Part shown: positions 9,256 through 31,238 of the stretch, piece after piece | Position numbering within the stretch: position 1 is the first letter of the stretch | Layout of the letters: each line of letters starts with the position of its first letter | Assembly (NCBI GenBank): GCA_964532095.1 | Contig: CAZHGK010000005.1 | Location: forward strand, 1 to 45,764 | Reading direction: 5' to 3' | From: an uncultured Planctomycetales bacterium | GTDB taxonomy: Bacteria; Omnitrophota; Gorgyraeia; Zapsychrales; Fredricksoniimonadaceae | DNA: 45,764 nt | Program-made: the position numbers and the translations under genes | The notes under the pieces: model-generated | Database searches by the model: none | Told to the model about the DNA's origin: nothing | Seen by the model: the letters and a program-made list of their open reading frames with translations, nothing else

Positions 9256-12200
9256 TTACCCTTTTTGTTGTTCGGTTGTACCCTCAGCTGCCATTGCCTT
9301 AAACATCTTCCAGCGTTCATTCACATCATGTTGGGCCAAATTCAGCAAACGCTTGGCCTCTTCAGGATTGCTTTTGACTAACATGGTGAAACGATTTTGC
9401 CTGTCGGCAAATTCCTTCAAGGGAATCTTAGGTTCTGTGGAATCCATTTGGAACGGATTTTTCCCCTCGAGAGTCAGCAAGGGATTATACCTAAACAATG
9501 GCCAGTACCCCGCATTTACTGCTGATTTCTGGTCTTGCAAACCATTAATCATGTCAATCCCATGGGCAATGCAATGGCTATACGCGATAATCAGCGACGG
9601 GCCATCATAACTTTCTGCTTCAAGGAAGGTGCGCAAGGTATGCTCATCTTTTGCCCCCATCGCCACTGAACCAACATACACATGGCCATAGGTCATGATC
9701 ATGCGCGCTAAGTCTTTCTTGCCAAGCCCCTTCCCTGCAGAGGCAAATTTGGCAACTGCCCCACGCGGCGTTGATTTGGAAGCTTGTCCTCCGGTATTGG
9801 AATACACTTCCGTATCCAAAACAAGGATATTCACATTACGGCCAGACGATAAGACATGGTCTAATCCTCCAAAACCAATATCATACGCCCAACCATCGCC
9901 CCCAATAATCCATACGCTTTTTTTGACTAGCATGTCTGCTATCGTCAGCAATTGCTGCGCATCAATGGATTTAATTTTCTTTAATTTTTCTTTTAATACA
10001 GCCACACGTTGGCGTTGCTCAAAAATATCTGCTTCTTCCAATTGCTTGGCATTGATAATTCCACTGACTAACTCATCCCCTAACTGCCCTGCCATTTTTA
10101 CGCACAATTCCATGGCATGTTCTTTTTGTTGATCAACGGCAAGGCGCATGCCAAGACCAAATTCCGCATTATCTTCAAACAAGGAATTTGCCCAGGCAGG
10201 ACCACGCCCTTCTTTATTTTTCGTGTATGGGGTCGTCGGTAAGTTACCCCCATAAATGGAAGAACATCCCGTAGCATTGGCAATAAGCATACGGTCACCA
10301 AACAGCTGGGTCGCTAATTTGATATACGGCGTTTCGCCACAACCCGTGCATGCTCCGGAAAACTCAAACAGCGGTTCTAAAACTTGTGACGAACGCACGG
10401 CATTCTTTTTGACCAGACGACGGTCTATTTCCGGAAGATCTAAGAAGAAATCCCAATTTTCTTTTTCCGTGTCCCGTATAGGACGCTGCTCAGCCATATT
10501 AATGGCTTTTAATTTTGTTTCTGCCTTATTCTTAACAGGACAAACATCCACACAGAGCCCACAGCCTGTACAATCTTCCGGGGCAACCTGCAGGGTATAT
10601 TTTAAATGCTTCCATTCGGTATCCCTGGCCTGTACAGATTTAAATGTCGACGGAGCACCTTCAGCCAATTTTGGCTCATACACTTTAAAGCGTATAACTG
10701 AATGCGGACAAACCATGGAACATTTGCCACACTGGATACAGATATCCTTGTCCCACACAGGAATTTCCTGGGCAATATTACGTTTTTCCCATTTGGCAGT
10801 TCCGACGGGATATGTACCATCTACCGGCATACAACTTACTGGAAGATGGTCCCCTTGATAGGAAAGCATCGGCGAAATCACCTTCTTGACAAAATCTGGC
10901 GCATCTTTGGCAACCATCTGATGGCGAGAGCGCGTGCTGGTAACCTTAGAAGGATATTTAATCTCATGCATATTCGCAATACTTTGGTCCACCGCATGGA
11001 AATTCATGGCCACAATATGCTCACCCTTTTTGCCATAGGATTTCTGGATAAAATCCTTAATCGACTTAATGGCCTCTTCTCTCGGAAGAACGCCAGAAAT
11101 TGCAAAGAAACAGGTTTGCATAATCGTATTGATACGCCCACCCATCTTTGATTCCCGCGCTACCTTATAGGCATCAATCACAAAGAATTTCAATTTCTTA
11201 TCGATAATTGTTTTTTGTACTTCTTTAGGCAAAGCATCCCAAACCTTATCTTGCTCAAATGGGGCATTGAGTAAAAACACCCCCCCTTCTTCAATTTTGT
11301 CTAATAAATCATATTTTTCAAGAAAATCGAATTGATGACATCCAACAAAGTTTGCGCTGGTGACTAAAAACGGCGAATGGATTGGCTTTGGGCCAAAACG
11401 AAGATGCGAAACTGTTTGGGAGCCGGATTTTTTGGAGTCATAGACAAAATACCCTTGCACAAACAGATTTGTATTTTCCCCAATGATCTTGATGGTATTC
11501 TTGTTTGCCCCCACAGTCCCGTCGGCACCAAGCCCATAAAATATCGCCTTTACCCCATCGGTCAGTTCAATGATATAATTCGGGTCATAATCCAGACTGG
11601 TATGGCTTACATCATCATTAATCCCAACCGTAAAATGATTTTTTGGTTTATCCTTCTTTAATTCATCAAGAACACTTTTGACCATGGCTGGGGTGAATTC
11701 TTTAGACGATAAACCATAACGTCCCCCAATTAATTTTGGCGTGCTATTAAAATGCTCCCCAGAAGTATTCTCAAACAAGGCCTGGGCAATATCCATATAC
11801 AGAGGTTCACCACTGGAACCAGGCTCCTTGGTCCGATCTAACACGGCAATGGCAGAAACTGTCCTTGGAAGCGCCTTGATAAAATGTTCTAAAGAAAATG
11901 GCCTATAAAGCCTTACCTTTAAAACCCCAACCTTTTCTCCCTCGCTGATAAGCTTATTAACCGTTTCCTGGGTTGTTGCTGCCCCTGAACCCATGATCAC
12001 AATGACCCGCTCTGCAAACGGATGTCCATAATAATCAAACAAATGGTATTGCCGGCCTGTTAGTTGTGCAAACTTATCCATTGTCTTTTGCACAATAGCC
12101 GGACATTTCTCGTAATAAGGATTAACTGTTTCTCGTGCCTGAAAATACACATCAGGGTTTTGGGTCACACCACGGATGACTGGATCATCAGGTGTCAATC

Positions 12201-25840: not shown

Positions 25841-25855
25841 AAAATGATGGTGGGC

Positions 25856-25892
25856 ATAAAAAATCCCCCGCATACTATTACCTATGGGGGGG
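25856..25892 (-). terminator. orphaned intrinsic terminator of the ancestral tRNA-Ser
   Basis: The minus strand reads CCCCCCCATAGGTAATAGTATGCGGGGG followed by ATTTTTTAT, directly downstream of the left 19-bp tRNA-3'-end repeat. Confidence 0.6.
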
Positions 25893-25895
25893 AAA

Positions 25896-25914
25896 CGGAG
25901 AGGGAGAGATTCGA
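25896..25914. repeat. attL-type direct repeat (copy of the tRNA-Ser 3' end)
   Basis: CGGAGAGGGAGAGATTCGA is identical to 30955-30973. The flanking bases differ on both sides. Confidence 0.85.
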
Positions 25915-26039
25915 TTAAGGCGTTTTTCGAACTATTTAAAAAGAAACGAACTATGATGTAACTGCTTTATTGCTAACATCTTGACCATTCTTTCGTTTCC
26001 ATCTCTTTCCCCGCCGTTACTCCCCTTTTTGTTCGACGA

Positions 26040-26060
26040 TGGGCACCTTTTGGGCACCAT
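26040..26060 (+). repeat. arm-type repeat pair (TGGGCAC x2, 11-bp spacing), left arm
   Basis: TGGGCACCTTTTGGGCACCAT matches 30862-30882 at 20 of 21 positions in the same orientation. It lies 126 bp inside the left att repeat. Confidence 0.55.
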
Positions 26061-26467
26061 TAACCTTCTATCCAAACATCATGAATCCATGTTGCTAGAT
26101 CGGACCATTTCTCATTTGAAAATCCATTATGCGACCAATAAACAACTTCACCGTTCTTATTTAAACAATAATAATCACCATTGTCCTGACAAATTGGGAG
26201 TAAATCTTTAGCAATGCCTGCATCCCAACCTTCTTTTGCGACATTAATTAAATATAAACGATTATCTCTTATATCTAAATTGGCTGGTTCTAGCGTTCCA
26301 TATACCACGTCACTTGCATATAGCAGAAAATGACGATATTGATTAGGAAAAGTTATTCCTAAATCTTTCTCTGCCCTTACAACATCTTGTTCCTTTGGTA
26401 AAGTAAGTGGATTAGGAACATCTTCATTTAACTCTTTTAATTGGACTATTATTTCTTTTATATCCAT
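26060..26467 (-). CDS. SMI1/KNR4 (SUKH-1) family protein, immunity-protein-like
   Basis: 135 aa. LGITFPNQYRHFLLYAS, and the ...GDYYCLNKNGEVVYWSH pattern typical of SUKH domains. Confidence 0.7.
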   Translation of the reverse strand: MDIKEIIVQLKELNEDVPNPLTLPKEQDVVRAEKDLGITFPNQYRHFLLYASDVVYGTLEPANLDIRDNRLYLINVAKEGWDAGIAKDLLPICQDNGDYYCLNKNGEVVYWSHNGFSNEKWSDLATWIHDVWIEG

Positions 26468-26565
26468 GAAAAACCCCATGCCCGTCAATGCTACTAAGAT
26501 TTAAAAAATAAAAAATCTGCTTTGTTGTAAGTATAACACAAACAACACCGGGATAAATTCAAACC

Positions 26566-26769
26566 TCAAATATTTGCTGGCTTCATGCGCTTTCTCGCCT
26601 GTAACCATCTTTCCAAATCAGATTGCCTAAAACGGATCACTCCAGCGGAACCTCTGCTTTTATAGACCTTAAAATATGGAATATCCCCGCAATGAACCCA
26701 ATTATAAATGGTCTTAGGGCTCATTTGTAACAGTTCCCCCACTTCACGAATCTTTAAAAGTTTTTCCAT
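26566..26769 (-). CDS. excisionase / AlpA-type helix-turn-helix DNA-binding protein
   Basis: 67 aa. LKIREVGELLQMSPKTIYNWVHCGDIPYFKV...IRFRQSDLERWL. ATG at 26769 with a GGAGG SD sequence. Confidence 0.75.
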   Translation of the reverse strand: MEKLLKIREVGELLQMSPKTIYNWVHCGDIPYFKVYKSRGSAGVIRFRQSDLERWLQARKRMKPANI

Positions 26770-26931
26770 AAATCCTCCAAATCTTAGACATAACATAAAT
26801 ACAATCTATATTAAGATTCCAGAAGGATTTAATTTCTATATGTGGGGGAGAAATTAAAGGGGGATTCCTTGATACCTGCTAAATAAAATTTAGCACAAAC
26901 AAAAAATCTGTCAACAATTGCCTTGCAACCA

Positions 26932-26964
26932 ATAATTAGTGCAACGATCTGTTGCACTAATTAT
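26932..26964 (-). terminator. perfect 14-bp-stem hairpin at the end of the three-gene operon
   Basis: ATAATTAGTGCAAC-GATCT-GTTGCACTAATTAT overlaps the stop of the 150-aa ORF. A moderately T-rich tract follows on the minus strand. Confidence 0.5.
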
Positions 26965-27413
26965 CCAACAGCTTTTAAAATAACTTTTTCGTAATGTATT
27001 TTCTCAAATCTAAACGGACCAACTTGCTTAAATGAAGCCATATCAGTCATCTGAGGATCGTAGTCATTCTCATATCCAAACTCGGACCATTCAATTATTC
27101 CAGAAGACTCTGAAATTTTAATGGTAATAGCTCCACAGCCAATGTCTCCACACTCAGAGCAAACATATAACATGCATCGGCCATTTTCTAAATCTGGTGC
27201 TTGTTTTAGCTTGAAGACTTCGGCACTTTCCCGATTCAAAGCCAAGTTTTCTTCCTGTGAAAATCGTCCTACCATATCAAACTTAGAGGCTCCAAGCAAT
27301 TCATACAGTGATTGCCCATTCACAATGAAATCAATTGTATGACGTTCGTGTTTAACTGTCGAATCACCAGCACGATGAATAACACGTAAATCTAATTTAT
27401 CAGTTTTTTCCAT
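26961..27413 (-). CDS. hypothetical protein with CSECGDIGCG motif
   Basis: 150 aa with no enzymatic motif I recognise. Last gene of a tightly packed three-gene unit. Confidence 0.6.
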   Translation of the reverse strand: MEKTDKLDLRVIHRAGDSTVKHERHTIDFIVNGQSLYELLGASKFDMVGRFSQEENLALNRESAEVFKLKQAPDLENGRCMLYVCSECGDIGCGAITIKISESSGIIEWSEFGYENDYDPQMTDMASFKQVGPFRFEKIHYEKVILKAVG

Positions 27414-27445
27414 ATCCCATCCTCATTTAAACTTCTTCATAAATC

Positions 27446-27718
27446 TTAATCGTGATCATTTCTTTTAAATTTTACTTTAAGCAGGTAGCAATCTTTTAGT
27501 TTTTCCACATCCAAAACGGTGATTTTCCCACTCATATCTGGGTCTTCAACGAAACCATGTTTAGTTTGACACTCAAAATAAAAAGATGCTGATCCACTAC
27601 AAGAAGAACTGGAATGAAAATCGATGTAACCAATATCGATACTTCGAAGATTAAGAATTATATCTGAGCTCTTTCCATTTCTACCTTTCAAATATTTTGT
27701 TTCCATATTCTTCTCCAA
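27446..27718 (-). CDS. hypothetical small protein
   Basis: 90 aa. Separated by 5 nt from the upstream gene and 32 nt from the downstream gene. Confidence 0.5.
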   Translation of the reverse strand: MEKNMETKYLKGRNGKSSDIILNLRSIDIGYIDFHSSSSCSGSASFYFECQTKHGFVEDPDMSGKITVLDVEKLKDCYLLKVKFKRNDHD

Positions 27719-27723
27719 TATTC

Positions 27724-28698
27724 TTAAATCTTTAAATTTTCTTTTGTTTCTTTACTATATTTCTCTTTTACTTTCTTGAGGAAAAATATAATGTTGCCAT
27801 TTTCTTCTTTTTTCTCAAAATTTATTATTATTTGTGAACTATAAACACTTGGGTCAATTTTAGATTCCCCCTCGTATCTAGCTGTTAAAATTATTTGTAA
27901 CGCCACCGCTGCACTATTATTCTTTAACTTAGAAATATTAATTTCGGGAACAAAATTTGTTACAATGTTTCCCATTCCATCAGAGGATAATTGCCCCACT
28001 CCTTCGGGATTCTCAATCAATACTCCTGGTTGAATAGTGTCAATCCTTCCAGCCGAATCAATCCAAAAACTATCATATTTTAATTCAACGTTTTGAGCCG
28101 GTATTTTTCCCTTATTTATTAAATTAAAACTTAAATACATTTTCTCTTCATTGGAGTAAACAAAATAAAACATCCCGTTCTGTATTTTTATATTACCACC
28201 TGGTTTTAACCAAAAAACTAAATAAGGTCGGTATTCCATCTGAAGCGCTGCGATCTTATGTTCAGTGTTCTGTTTTTCGGTATTTGCTGATCTCTCTGCG
28301 CTGTTAAAGCCTAACCATGTAATAAATGCTATAAAAATAGTAGCTATAGCCATAAAAATATTGGTTAATTGTGGAATAAATCTGTCCGGATTCCATCTAA
28401 ACCAGATACTTGTAAAAAATGAAACAAAAGCAATTATCAAAAATAAATACTTAAATGAATGCTTTAAAACAATTACATTTGAGAAGCACATACAAAACAT
28501 ACAAATAAATACAAGCATACTTATAATTAAAAAAGGCTTGCTGCGGATGATTCTTTTGATTTTACTTAAATCTTGATTCATATTAAAAATATGTTTTGAA
28601 CAGAATTCATATCCATTTTTAGCATTATTCTTACAAGGATTGCCTTTTTGAGTCAAAGCTTTACATTTTGTATTATCGTTTGTAGTAGGAGTGTTCAT
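27724..28698 (-). CDS. hypothetical membrane protein with N-terminal Cys/His zinc-ribbon-like motif
   Basis: 324 aa. CKALTQKGNPCKNNAKNGYEFCSKH (C-x9-C-x11-C-x2-H), three TM helices, then a roughly 170-aa beta-rich C-terminal domain. Confidence 0.65.
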   Translation of the reverse strand: MNTPTTNDNTKCKALTQKGNPCKNNAKNGYEFCSKHIFNMNQDLSKIKRIIRSKPFLIISMLVFICMFCMCFSNVIVLKHSFKYLFLIIAFVSFFTSIWFRWNPDRFIPQLTNIFMAIATIFIAFITWLGFNSAERSANTEKQNTEHKIAALQMEYRPYLVFWLKPGGNIKIQNGMFYFVYSNEEKMYLSFNLINKGKIPAQNVELKYDSFWIDSAGRIDTIQPGVLIENPEGVGQLSSDGMGNIVTNFVPEINISKLKNNSAAVALQIILTARYEGESKIDPSVYSSQIIINFEKKEENGNIIFFLKKVKEKYSKETKENLKI

Positions 28699-28794
28699 AT
28701 TAAAAAGTTATTCAACAAACAAGGATGAGTCATATAAATTTAAAACACCTTGCCAACCTATCAGTTGGATTATATACTTTAAATAGCTTTTAAG

Positions 28795-28890
28795 GATCGG
28801 GGTGTCTCCCGGTCGAAATTTACCAAAGGTTCCGCCTCGATGACAAGGGCCCAAGGGGCCCTCTCGTAAGAGTAGTCGAGGCGGTCGCAT
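28795..28890. ncRNA. GC-rich multi-hairpin element immediately 3' of the DUF3800 CDS (candidate structured RNA)
   Basis: About 59% GC by hand count, against about 27% in the preceding 90 nt. It contains a 7-bp hairpin at 28795-28814 and a 9-bp enclosing helix (28832-28840 with 28876-28884) around GGGCCC-AAG-GGGCCC (28847-28861) and a small CTCT/AGAG hairpin. Two non-Watson-Crick positions are G-U on the plus strand but C-A on the minus strand. Confidence 0.4.
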
Positions 28891-28892
28891 TT

Positions 28893-29564
28893 TTAGTAAT
28901 ATAACGTCGTTCCTGCCCGAAATATATTAAATTCACTCTTAATAACCTTCTTTATTCCTTCGTAAGACCTTAAATCGTTAATTTCCCATTTGCGATAAAT
29001 CGCCCAATTGCAGTAATCAACAATTTGTAAATCAAAATTTGATTTTGAAGCATGATGGAATATTTCATAAACTACCCCAGGTGGAAGCATTTCGGCTAGG
29101 AATATCTTTATAGCCTTTTCTATTGCCTTCTTTTTACGCTGAACAGGAATGTTATCCGTAAAAATAATCACTTTTGCAAATTGATTTAGATCGTACCCTT
29201 TTATTACATAACTCAATAAATACTTTAACATTTCTGGGTAAAACCTTGTTTCATCTCTTAAGGCTGGTCCTGTCTTACGTTTTTCAACAATTAAGCTATC
29301 AATACGGGTCTGATCAATATATCTATGGATTATATCAAATACCCCGTTTCTTACTGCCTGGGTATCCTCTGCTGCATGAAAGGCCTCAATCTCAACGCCT
29401 AATTCAATAAGATCGTATTTTAATTCACATAAATGCTTATATGCCTCGAATGGTCGTTCTTTTGAAAGGCTCGTTAAAGTAAAATATTTAGTCCCTCCAT
29501 TCGAAAAGTCTAAATTACCGCCCTCATCTAAGAAAATATAAAGAATTTTTTTCTTCTCTAACAT
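28893..29564 (-). CDS. DUF3800 domain protein
   Basis: 223 aa. N-terminal ILYIFLDEGGN (DUF3800 hhhDESG-type motif), FHAAED, and C-terminal SKSNFDLQIVDY (LQxxD). The acidic residues are spaced compatibly with an RNase H-like fold, which is my inference. Confidence 0.75.
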   Translation of the reverse strand: MLEKKKILYIFLDEGGNLDFSNGGTKYFTLTSLSKERPFEAYKHLCELKYDLIELGVEIEAFHAAEDTQAVRNGVFDIIHRYIDQTRIDSLIVEKRKTGPALRDETRFYPEMLKYLLSYVIKGYDLNQFAKVIIFTDNIPVQRKKKAIEKAIKIFLAEMLPPGVVYEIFHHASKSNFDLQIVDYCNWAIYRKWEINDLRSYEGIKKVIKSEFNIFRAGTTLYY

Positions 29565-29633
29565 TAATATTCCCTCAAACTTAAATTTCGATAATTATAG
29601 TATATTCCTCACCGTTTAATACAACTTTTCTTC

Positions 29634-29716
29634 TGCGCGCGATCGGCCCAGACCCCTTCCGCTCCGTCAAAACCTATGGTTGAGTGGGAGGGGTCTGGGG
29701 TGATGCTTCGCGCGCA
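29634..29716. ncRNA. 83-nt GC-rich long hairpin between the integrase and DUF3800 genes (candidate structured RNA)
   Basis: About 65% GC. A 9-bp basal helix (29634-29642 with 29708-29716) and an 18-bp upper helix (29647-29664 with 29682-29699). The upper helix is continuous on the plus strand with two G-U pairs, which become A-C mismatches on the minus strand. Confidence 0.4.
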
Positions 29717-29761
29717 TTCCGTCAAATTCCTTTGTGAATCATTGACTTATGAATCAGTAAA

Positions 29762-29809
29762 TCTACATTTTTTCTACATTTTGTAGAACTTTTGTAGACT
29801 TTTTGTAGA
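29762..29809. repeat. five phased TCTACA/TGTAGA hexamers (iteron/operator-like array)
   Basis: TCTACA at 29762 and 29773; TGTAGA at 29782, 29793 and 29804. Spacing is mostly 11 bp, each hexamer has a T4-5 flank, and the central pair forms the palindrome TCTACATTTTGTAGA. Confidence 0.55.
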
Positions 29810-29810
29810 T

Positions 29811-30836
29811 TTAAAAATTTAGCTTCTCAACCGCCTTATCTACATGCTCATCAGCCAAGTGAGAATAAACCATGGTGGTTTCGATGTCTGCATGGCCTAA
29901 TAGCTTCTTGACCGTAGGCAAGTCCACTCCGCTCATAATCAAATGACTTGCAAATGTATGCCTGAGTGTATGAATCTTGGTTACATCCGAAAAACCATGT
30001 TCTGTACTTATACGCATTAATTGTTTACGCAAATAGTTAGGATCAACCTTCTCTCCCTTGCGATGAAAGACATAGGGACAAGTATCAGCTTTTTGCTTCT
30101 GATTTACCAGCACTTCCATTAAACCATTATGAATTGGAATTTCACGTTCGGACGTTTTTGGACTCCAATCATCCTTATAACGAATTTTGATTTTCTTGCG
30201 CTGAAAATCTACATCGCTCCAAGTGAGATTTTCCAATTCACTTTTGCGCATACCGGTATGAAGAAAGGTATAGAAAATTGGATAAAGCCACTCACCGCAA
30301 TTTTCTAAAAGAGCCTTGGACTCTTCTTTGCTTAAGAACCGTGGCTTTTTGTTAGCTTCTTCTTTGAGGTCTTTAATCCCTTTAACAGGATTCTCTTTAA
30401 GATAACCCCAGCGCATACCGAGATAAAACATTGCTTTTAAACAAATCAATTCAATATTGATTGTTTTGTTAGCAGCGCCTTTTTTCTTGCGATAAGCCTG
30501 ATAATCTTCAAAAAATTTGGAATTTAGTTGGGATGTCTTTTTGATGAATGGAGATTTGTTTAGGAATTCTTTGAAATTATCGAGGATGGCTGAATAACGT
30601 CTTTGTGAGGATGGTGCATGGTGGGTTTTGCTGTAGACTAGGTATTCTTCAAACAATTGGTTTAATTCAATGTCTTTTTCAACAAAACCAATTTCTTGTC
30701 GCTCTAGCTTTACTTCAATGTCCTTTAATGCTAATTCCGCTGTTTTCTTTGATTTGCCTATGGCCTTACGGACTCTTTGGCCGTTGACACGATAATCAAT
30801 AAAATACCGACCAGCTTTAAATCTGAGACTTGCCAT
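29811..30836 (-). CDS. int: tyrosine recombinase / phage-type integrase
   Basis: 341 aa. HTGMRKSEL (Arg I), HTLRHTFAS (H-x-x-R) and GHADIETTMVYSH (His/Tyr). Adjacent to the tRNA-Ser 3' end. Confidence 0.92.
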   Translation of the reverse strand: MASLRFKAGRYFIDYRVNGQRVRKAIGKSKKTAELALKDIEVKLERQEIGFVEKDIELNQLFEEYLVYSKTHHAPSSQRRYSAILDNFKEFLNKSPFIKKTSQLNSKFFEDYQAYRKKKGAANKTINIELICLKAMFYLGMRWGYLKENPVKGIKDLKEEANKKPRFLSKEESKALLENCGEWLYPIFYTFLHTGMRKSELENLTWSDVDFQRKKIKIRYKDDWSPKTSEREIPIHNGLMEVLVNQKQKADTCPYVFHRKGEKVDPNYLRKQLMRISTEHGFSDVTKIHTLRHTFASHLIMSGVDLPTVKKLLGHADIETTMVYSHLADEHVDKAVEKLNF

Positions 30837-30861
30837 AAAAAACCCCCTTGTTGATGATTGT

Positions 30862-30882
30862 TGGGCACTTTTTGGGCACCAT
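30862..30882 (+). repeat. arm-type repeat pair (TGGGCAC x2), right arm
   Basis: TGGGCACTTTTTGGGCACCAT lies between the int start and the att core, 73 bp inside the right repeat. Confidence 0.55.
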
Positions 30883-30951
30883 CATCTTTAAGGGGGGTCA
30901 AGATGTTTGTAACTAATAATAAAATAATCAGTTACAAAATGCAATTAAAAC

Positions 30952-31041
30952 TGGCGGAGAGGGAGAGATTCGAACTCTCGATACCCTTTCAGGTACACAC
31001 GCTCTCCAGGCGTGCGCCTTCAACCACTCGGCCACCTCTCC
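30952..31041 (-). tRNA. tRNA-Ser (anticodon GGA), CCA encoded
   Basis: Hand-folded as GGAGAGG acceptor stem, anticodon stem CACGC/GCGTG with loop CTGGAGA, a long variable arm, and T-arm GAGAG-TTCGAATC-CTCTC. 90 nt. Confidence 0.9.
30955..30973. repeat. attR-type direct repeat inside the tRNA-Ser 3' end
   Basis: Identical 19-mer to 25896-25914. Confidence 0.85.
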
Positions 31042-31159: not shown

Positions 31160-31238
31160 GATCCTGAGTCTAACTTAAGACGAAGGATCTAAATTATCAA
31201 AATCACAGATCCTGAGTCTAACTTAAGACGAAGGATCT
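31160..31238. repeat. two identical 31-bp hairpin-forming repeats (31160-31190, 31208-31238)
   Basis: GATCCTGAGTCTAACTTAAGACGAAGGATCT occurs twice with a 48-bp period. Each copy folds as GATCCT/AGGATC plus GTCT/AGAC. The pair sits just 3' of the ABC-F stop. Confidence 0.7.

Follow-up and report, generated by a model that had tools for sequence, protein, structure and literature searches.

Tyrosine integrases that insert genomic islands into tRNA or tmRNA genes generate a class of islands catalogued by tools such as Islander. Defence or toxin genes are also found embedded in type I restriction-modification (R-M) operons, an example being PrrC in the prr locus, and the SUKH (SMI1-KNR4) proteins have reportedly been described by Zhang, Aravind and co-workers as immunity proteins of polymorphic toxin systems. 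Proteins of the DUF3800 family act as effectors in type VII retrons, which combine a reverse transcriptase, msr/msd and DUF3800 (Mestre et al. 2020, PMC7736814), and eleven unrelated RNA motifs have been reported near DUF3800 genes with no function offered (Weinberg et al. 2017, PMC5737381). We found no later literature giving a function to these DUF3800-associated RNAs. Here we analyse a stretch of 45,764 nucleotides (nt), hereafter the window, which is contig CAZHGK010000005.1 (assembly GCA_964532095.1, positions 1 to 45,764) of an uncultured Planctomycetales bacterium assigned by GTDB to the Omnitrophota. Its segment 25896-30973 is very probably a small integrative element (5,059 bp with one core repeat counted), put into the 3' end of a tRNA-Ser(GGA) gene by a tyrosine integrase; the insertion would have rebuilt the tRNA with sequence of the element and moved its former terminator away. 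The islet is of an ordinary kind, in a poorly studied uncultured phylum. Like other tRNA-integrated islands, it exhibits an integrase beside an intact tRNA, a duplicated tRNA 3' fragment, a deviant composition, a helix-turn-helix (HTH) gene of the excisionase (Xis) type and variable cargo; it differs from them in its small size (5.06 kb), its Omnitrophota host and a CCA provided on the element side.

An intact tRNA-Ser(GGA) gene is located at 30952-31041 on the minus strand (ARAGORN), and the Rfam tRNA model matches at the same place with 59.8 bits. The 19-mer CGGAGAGGGAGAGATTCGA occurs in two exact copies, the start-to-start distance of which is 5059 bp (repeat family D12, 100% identity). No further copy exists in the window, even when three mismatches are allowed, and none is expected from 100 shuffles. 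The identity between the two copies extends over exactly 19 bp, the flanking bases on either side being different. This core repeat covers a part of the T-loop, the 3' strand of the T-stem, the 3' acceptor strand and the discriminator. The right copy forms the 3' end of the tRNA-Ser(GGA) gene, the CCA of which (30952-30954) falls on the islet side and is not part of the repeat. Between the two copies there are seven open reading frames (ORFs), all of them on the minus strand like the tRNA: the integrase, a DUF3800 protein, a 324-aa membrane protein, a 90-aa and a 150-aa protein, an HTH_17 protein and a SUKH_5 protein (Table 1). A first-pass annotation of this DNA had proposed that a 19-bp duplication of the tRNA 3' end bounds an integrase, an Xis-like gene and all cargo, and had allowed for a chance recurrence of the 19-mer elsewhere; the former is borne out by the two exact copies, the ORF list and ARAGORN, and no instance of the latter was found. 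The islet has a G+C content of 35.1% and the remainder of the contig one of 43.3%; the lowest value among 123 other 5078-nt segments of the contig is 40.9%.

Table 1. Positions of the features discussed in the text (window coordinates)
Feature	Position	Strand	Basis and remarks
tRNA-proximal 19-bp core	30955..30973	.	Putative attachment (att) site inside the tRNA (attR core, last 19 nt before CCA); exact match
Distal 19-bp core	25896..25914	.	Putative att site on the islet end remote from the tRNA; exact match, family D12
Intrinsic-terminator-like hairpin and U6	25858..25893	-	RNAfold; 3 nt beyond the distal core, C/G-rich stem of 6+4 bp bulged once on either side
Tyrosine integrase, 341 aa	29811..30836	-	Phage_integrase 1.7e-33 (116 bits), with SAM_5 and Int_N; phrog_1 integrase 1.7e-77
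Conserved tRNA-to-int spacer	30837..30951	-	Inverted repeat TGTAACT..AGTTACA, long imperfect palindrome, T6, int start codon
tRNA-proximal 46-nt block, tandem GTGCCCA, 11-nt period	30844..30889	.	Repeat family D1; conserved upstream of int across the family
Distal 46-nt block, tandem GTGCCCA	26022..26067	.	Oriented like the proximal block; about 126 nt inward of the distal core
HTH_17 DNA-binding protein, 76 aa	26566..26796	-	HTH_17 7.5e-14; phrog_66 excisionase/regulator 7e-12
DUF3800 protein, 223 aa	28893..29564	-	Pfam DUF3800 2.1e-10; PADLOC DUF3800_VII 7e-9
Three-way-junction RNA motif, then CGCAUUUUU	28823..28894	+	Convergent with DUF3800, abuts its stop codon; model R1 92.9 bits
Promoter-like site TTGCCA-17-TATACT	28750..28778	+	10/12 consensus matches; comparison across loci
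SUKH_5 / SMI1-KNR4 protein, 142 aa	26060..26488	-	SUKH_5 6.3e-38 (130 bits, cutoff 27), SMI1_KNR4 6.8e-17; last islet gene
150-aa protein	26961..27413	-	Invariant CxECGDxGCGA motif; family of hypothetical proteins
90-aa ORF	27446..27718	-	No family match
Predicted membrane protein, 324 aa	27724..28698	-	N-terminal Cys-rich CCCH-type motif; no Pfam family
Three direct TCTACAAAA repeats, then two inverted copies, hairpin-forming	29755..29815	-	Overlaps the region of the int stop codon
83-nt GC-rich hairpin in AT-rich spacer between int and DUF3800	29634..29716	-	-49 kcal/mol for the 101-nt folded stretch; z = -6.4

The sequence just outside the distal core was examined for traces of the original tRNA gene. 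On the minus strand, RNAfold predicts a hairpin followed by a U-run (stem 25864-25893, U6 25858-25863; minimum free energy -15.5 kcal/mol for a 75-nt stretch), in agreement with the good intrinsic terminator that had been noticed there beforehand. The hairpin is real but not exceptional by itself, the z-score of the whole 75-nt stretch being only -1.0, and a simple consensus terminator scanner did not flag it. In related genomes, the tRNA-Ser(GGA) gene commonly exhibits a hairpin and a T-run 5-90 nt to its 3' side, and one of them (L008) has ...GGGGATTTTTTATG in common with the terminator of the window. We thus infer that the hairpin and U6 beyond the distal core were the original terminator of the tRNA. 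The first-pass annotation had called it an orphaned tRNA terminator; it does appear to have been displaced to the far side of the islet, but it is not functionally orphaned, because it lies downstream of the last islet gene on the same strand and would now end the islet's own minus-strand transcripts. A comparison of positions 30952-30954 with 25893-25895 further indicates that the reconstructed pre-insertion tRNA gene ended in ...CTCCG/TTTCCCCCCC (CTCCG-TTT), with no encoded CCA. tRNA-Ser(GGA) genes that lack the CCA are present in relatives L006, L015 and L084, consistent with the reconstructed attB, and the tRNA end of L084 is identical to the reconstructed one over 22 nt. From these sequences, the tRNA gene would have acquired its encoded CCA on insertion; given a pre-insertion gene lacking it, the attP of the element would therefore mimic 22 nt of the tRNA, CCA included.

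The proposed course of events is as follows. A circular form, with an attP mimicking 22 nt of the tRNA 3' end (TCGAATCTCTCCCTCTCCG plus CCA), would have recombined with the chromosomal tRNA gene within the 19-bp identity block. The tRNA would have been rebuilt from element sequence, which would have supplied the encoded CCA that the original gene apparently lacked, and the original downstream sequence of the tRNA (TTT, hairpin and T6) would have been moved 5 kb away to the far end. The predicted junction of the circle is ...AAACGCCTTAA/TCGAATCTCTCCCTCTCCG/CCAGTTTTAATTGC (25915 rightwards joined to 30954 leftwards), and the predicted empty attB is ...TTCGAATCTCTCCCTCTCCG/TTTCCCCCCCATAGG (tRNA joined to 25895 leftwards).

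Related genomes suggest that the islet was added to an older gene order. The ABC-F gene of the window is 81-87% identical to those of Candidatus Omnitrophota metagenome-assembled genomes (MAGs), which points to an Omnitrophota host, and the order from ABC-F to tRNA-Ser(GGA) is the same as in the window in 14 of the 16 closest MAGs. Past the tRNA, tblastn detected neither an integrase nor an islet-protein homologue in the nine relatives with at least 1 kb of sequence there. Homologues of the left-flank genes were likewise not found downstream of the tRNA in the syntenic relatives, and the gene content past tRNA-Ser(GGA) varies from relative to relative. In L007, the exception, a related spacer and int start occupy this site, and the contig stops within them, 155 nt beyond the tRNA. 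Since the syntenic relatives have no islet homologues, the 5 kb does not appear to be ancestral to the group; the opposite outcome, an ancestral 5 kb shared by relatives, had been named by the first-pass annotation as a reason to reject its reading.

The integrase has 2245 homologues at E<=1e-20, the best of which are from Omnitrophota. At least 16 related integrases are encoded directly 3' of a tRNA-Ser gene, on the same strand and with a conserved spacer, and more distant relatives adjoin other tRNAs. The anticodons of these tRNA-Ser genes are GGA, TGA, CGA and GCT; the integrase family thus differs from other tRNA-integrated islands by using the genes of all four tRNA-Ser isoacceptors seen. 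The closest relative (L085, 86% identity) adjoins a tRNA-Ser(TGA) gene, the last 28 nt of which are the same as in the tRNA of the window. The target is evidently the 3' end common to the serine isoacceptors. The cargo beside the related int genes differs from locus to locus: AbiEii with an HTH protein, a HigB-like protein with an HTH protein, DUF4160 with an HTH protein, AbiU2, DUF3800 and proteins with no assignment. A large family of tRNA-Ser-targeting integrase elements is thereby documented in Omnitrophota, of which, or of tRNA-Ser islets in this phylum, we found no prior description in the literature searched. Many metagenome contigs of the integrase family (L113, L116, L117, L119, L126, L128 and L136, first 3-41 nt) start or stop shortly before the target tRNA, at a distance of a few tens of bases; assembly breaks at a site occupied in part of the population only would produce such a pattern.

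One sister element, L093, exhibits the architecture of the islet. It is located at a tRNA-Ser(GGA) gene, with an 18-nt repeat of the tRNA 3' end (18 bp) 9.15 kb downstream. Tandem GTGCCCA sequences, GGTGCCCAAAA(A)GGTGCCCA, are found near both of its ends, the distal one about 131 nt inside the repeat, in the same arrangement as in the window. The 67-85 nt past its distal repeat are 95-98% identical to the sequence located directly 3' of tRNA-Ser in L060 and L004. Because this flank directly abuts a tRNA-Ser gene elsewhere, the far flank is native post-tRNA sequence as far as the family is concerned; no such counterpart was found for the flank of the window itself. A hairpin-containing segment, TTGTTGACGCTCAGGCGAACC...GGGTTCGCC, is present at 18327-18393 of L093, 7261-7328 of L060 and 11717-11740 of L004. 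As it follows tRNA-Ser(TGA) in one genome, tRNA-Ser(GGA) in another and the distal repeat in L093, it may be a conserved tRNA terminator or a sign of rearrangement between tRNA-Ser loci. L093 also has a DUF3800 gene (11039-11782) directly after int; its product exhibits no BLASTP similarity to the DUF3800 protein of the window (an unrelated subfamily) and is not accompanied by the RNA motif described below. Further cargo of L093 includes SpoVG, an HTH_Tnp protein and Fic.

With this sister element at hand, the idea that the 19-bp repeat is a product of chance or replication slippage, and the 5 kb a piece of ancestral chromosome, is effectively refuted. The failure to find the exact empty site is all that speaks for it, whereas the shuffled sequences gave no chance match to the 19-mer, the integrase adjoins the tRNA, the G+C content dips, the nine syntenic relatives have no integrase or islet-protein homologue past the tRNA, and L093 combines the same architecture with empty-site-like counterparts.

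The components expected of a tyrosine-integrase system are found in the islet. The integrase ORF is full length and begins 115 nt from the tRNA on the same strand; its residues R197, H289, R292, H315 and Y324 are invariant in an alignment of 28 family sequences. The spacer of about 115 nt is kept in the closest relatives (L007, L081-L087), with TGTAAC..GTTACA followed by a palindrome that encloses the GTGCCCA tandem and pairs with the ribosome-binding site of int. In the window this long palindrome reads CCCCCCTT..GATGATGG-(GTGCCCAAAAAGTGCCCA)-..ATCATC..AAGGGGG, and the fold z-score of the spacer is -4.2. Covariation in the spacer is too weak to call an RNA structure or to propose an attenuator: over 7 sequences, RNAalifold gives a term of +1.27 and just 6 compensatory pairs. 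The tandem GTGCCCA pattern occurs in the window at the two islet ends only, and its two blocks are, from their position, likely to be arm-type integrase sites. A second tandem copy was not found in the close sister loci L007 and L081-L087, and L093 has one. The HTH_17 protein scores 27.1 bits against TIGR01764 'excise' (cutoff 28.8) and has homologues in 27 loci of the integrase family, including L084 and L093; it is likely to be a directionality factor (excisionase) or a regulator. With attL, attR, putative arm-type repeats, int and a candidate Xis, the islet offers a clean and complete example within 5 kb. As a separate observation, the flank just outside the distal core (25841-25860) holds ATGATGGTGGGCATAAA, 80% complementary to ATGATGGTGCCCAAAAA in the arm-site region (30869-30888); the complementarity may be due to chance, many similar inverted pairs being listed.

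The integrase, the HTH_17 gene, the dip in G+C content, the GTGCCCA blocks, the sister element L093 and the nine relatives with no islet homologues together support the initial interpretation as an integrative islet. Several points weigh against it. The exact empty site, with the tRNA joined to 25895 leftwards, was not found in the genomes or metagenome contigs searched, and BLAST of the attL flank against all collected loci matched the tRNA end only. The flanking Cytidylate_kin2 gene has no close relative in the genome or metagenome collection, and look-ups of the exact Cytidylate_kin2 and ABC-F proteins of the flanks returned no record; because this flank has no close relatives, presence and absence of the islet at the precise locus are not demonstrated. 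No distal repeat was found in most sister loci within the sequence covered (L093 alone has one, and the others have none within 0.4-10 kb); larger size, decay or truncation at a contig end may account for this in many members of the family. No relaxase, oriT, capsid or other transfer function is recognisable in the islet, and the defence role of the cargo is circumstantial, being a matter of association.

Some of these points would suit an islet that did integrate and is now a fixed, non-excising remnant, domesticated and with its genes kept for their cargo function: most sister loci have no detectable distal repeat, mobilisation genes are not recognisable in the islet, and the empty site was not found. 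We consider such a fate possible but doubtful. The two cores are identical at 19 of 19 positions, the integrase is full length with invariant catalytic residues, and the two blocks of arm-type repeats are preserved along with the HTH_17 gene, because of which we argue that the element may still be competent to move. It is improbable that the islet is a mobilisable island (similar to an integrative and mobilisable element), a phage satellite or a prophage remnant, the transfer of which depends on a helper conjugative element or phage. A TraG-D_C fragment does lie beside the HTH_17 gene of the related element L084, and members of the window's DUF3800 subfamily are also carried by conjugative Roseobacter plasmids and IMG/VR contigs, but the seven islet ORFs exhibit no relaxase, oriT, primase, capsid or terminase match, and 5 kb is too small for a prophage.

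The cargo is of more interest than the islet, for it contains a DUF3800 gene with a strongly covarying RNA, a pair that is also embedded in type I R-M operons. The N-terminal DE and C-terminal QxxD motifs of DUF3800 are present in the protein, and D13, E14, Q180 and D183 are invariant. Its AlphaFold2 (AF2) model has a mean predicted local distance difference test score (pLDDT) of 90.7 and finds RNase HII/H2 structures as its best PDB matches (E-values from 3e-5 to 1e-4). The model thus suggests an RNase HII-like fold and a nuclease-like protein; an RNase H2-like fold agrees with published inferences on DUF3800 (PMC7736814, PMC10910872). The combination of an RNase-H2-like DUF3800 protein with a structured non-coding nucleic acid, together with the DUF3800_VII match, resembles the type VII retron, but the islet is not a retron because it has no reverse transcriptase: no such domain was detected in any islet ORF, nor any retron RNA in the Rfam scans.

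Members of the subfamily to which the window's DUF3800 protein belongs come from Omnitrophota, Chlamydiae, Verrucomicrobia, Elusimicrobia and Anaerolineales, with identities of 60-86%. Homologues accompanied by the RNA lie inside type I R-M operons, between hsdM and hsdS in L174-L178 (4001-4742) and between hsdS and hsdR in L182-L185 (3001-3735), and another one lies between wzm and wzt in L179 (4001-4742). This resembles the R-M-embedded genes of the PrrC type, from which the cassette of the window differs in being located in an integrase islet. The upstream gene is only 8-17 nt away from DUF3800 in the operon-embedded copies L174-L179. In operon-embedded copies, a perfect TATAAT often faces the next gene. 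In its contexts, DUF3800 with its RNA looks like a compact mobile or defence cassette.

In every homologue examined of this subfamily, the RNA motif follows the stop codon of the DUF3800 gene. It is a three-way junction with helices P1 (9 bp), P3 (6 bp) and P2 (3 bp, with a GNRA loop). Compensatory changes are observed in 13 of its 18 pairs, and 90.4% of cells are paired, a level reached by none of 500 shuffles; controls with a slid structure are 40-56% paired. The covariance model R1, built from 11 sequences, finds 12 of 12 distinct sequences of the subfamily, including L172 (36.6 bits), which was not in the seed. No other confident R1 match exists in 2.1 Mb, where only two matches at chance level (E-value 0.4-0.5) were obtained. 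The homologous site of L168 matches the Rfam family DUF3800-IX (RF02968) with 30.9 bits in a local search (E-value 4e-5), below the gathering score of 36.8, and the copy of the window has no Rfam match at E<=10. From these sequence comparisons, the motif appears to be a divergent relative of DUF3800-IX. It has in common with RF02968 the three-way junction beside a DUF3800 gene, the same strand relationship, the UAG junction and a GA-rich junction, but it differs in that the window copy is below detection and L168 below the gathering score, and in that the motif described here is found, without exception, directly at the stop codon of a single tight DUF3800 subfamily.

The counts of G-U and C-A cells at paired positions (179 vs 178) do not discriminate between the strands, so the orientation of the RNA rests on the tetraloops and the Rfam match. 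In 8 of 11 sequences, P2 is closed by a GNRA or UUCG loop when read antisense to DUF3800 and not when read in sense; a U-run follows P1 on the antisense strand in four distinct sequences. The promoter-like TTGCCA-17-TATACT could drive a plus-strand RNA, although TATAAT can be read from the minus strand of this AT-rich stretch, which makes the orientation of the promoter ambiguous. The structured element might otherwise be a 3' untranslated-region structure or terminator on the sense strand, or a DNA-level site, of a compact DUF3800 cassette with its own outward promoter, rather than an independent antisense RNA. Downstream of the motif, the DUF3800-sense strand does carry a perfect TATAAT, both in the window and at no fewer than five other loci, and the G-U and C-A counts do not separate the strands. 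Set against the antisense-only GNRA and UUCG loops of P2, the match of DUF3800-IX to the antisense strand in L168 and the antisense U-runs after P1, this explanation seems rather unlikely to us.

We tentatively favour an RNA-controlled nuclease module of a toxin-antitoxin or abortive-infection kind, given that the pair is compact, that protein and RNA occur strictly together, that R-M operons and mobile elements harbour them, and that the type VII retron offers an analogy. DUF3800 and its RNA might then be a self-contained, horizontally mobile cassette of two parts, in which an RNase-HII-like nuclease would be checked or guided by its own RNA; such an abortive-infection or addiction module would be carried along, in at least five phyla, by integrase islets, plasmids and type I R-M operons. 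By analogy, the RNA could be compared to that of type III toxin-antitoxin systems, or to the multicopy single-stranded DNA (msDNA) of the type VII retron. Should this proposal be true, it would give a function to the DUF3800-associated RNAs, unexplained since 2017. The occurrence of DUF3800 with a covarying RNA in a compact natural context makes the question of RNA function testable with a construct of about 1 kb.

The other cargo genes offer less direct hints. The strong SUKH_5 match is a trait in common with the SUKH immunity proteins of polymorphic toxin systems, but the islet differs from these in having no cognate toxin: no toxin domain was found among the islet ORFs or in the adjacent flank. 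The gene would thus be an orphan immunity gene. The 150-aa protein has 55 homologues, none of which is named, one of them lying in an immunity-like array of small genes with DUF6985 and BrnT; a fold search with its AF2 model (pLDDT 94.3) returned no PDB match. PADLOC, NCBIfam and PHROGs identified no system in the cargo and left three ORFs with no name. With PADLOC-DB v2, no complete defence system was detected, and single-gene matches were limited to DUF3800_VII, a mad1-like HTH (1.3e-8) and a weak CARF_TM (1.5e-3). The initial impression that all cargo is of the unassigned or immunity-like kind typical of defence islets therefore holds in part: the SUKH_5 immunity superfamily and the ORFs with no assignment are there, but defence is circumstantial, PADLOC gives no complete system, and DUF3800 with its RNA had been missed. 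The cargo is most plausibly conflict-related (toxin, immunity or defence).

The region between int and DUF3800 contains two further structured elements. Adjoining the int stop codon, the TCTACAAAA repeats, in 3 direct copies where 0.67 are expected, exhibit a fold z-score of -5.7; they may have a role in termination or as an operator. The 83-nt hairpin has no Rfam match and was found neither beside DUF3800 homologues nor in the other loci examined. An assignment of the GC-rich hairpins to integron attC sites was rejected, as they have no R'/R'' consensus ends and the integrase is far below the integron-integrase cutoffs. The Rfam scan of the islet returned the tRNA only. Outside the islet, two exact copies of a 30-nt palindromic unit, GATCCTGAGTCTAACTTAAGACGAAGGATC, are located at 31160-31189 and 31208-31237, between the ABC-F stop codon and the tRNA-Ser gene.

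Finally, the predicted 324-aa membrane protein is a rare one, as only 37 of 1.84 billion representatives match it at E<=1e-3. Its Cys-rich motif (residues 7-38, CKALTQKGNPCKNNAKNGYEFCSKH) is also seen in proteins that are otherwise unrelated, some of which have up to five copies of it.

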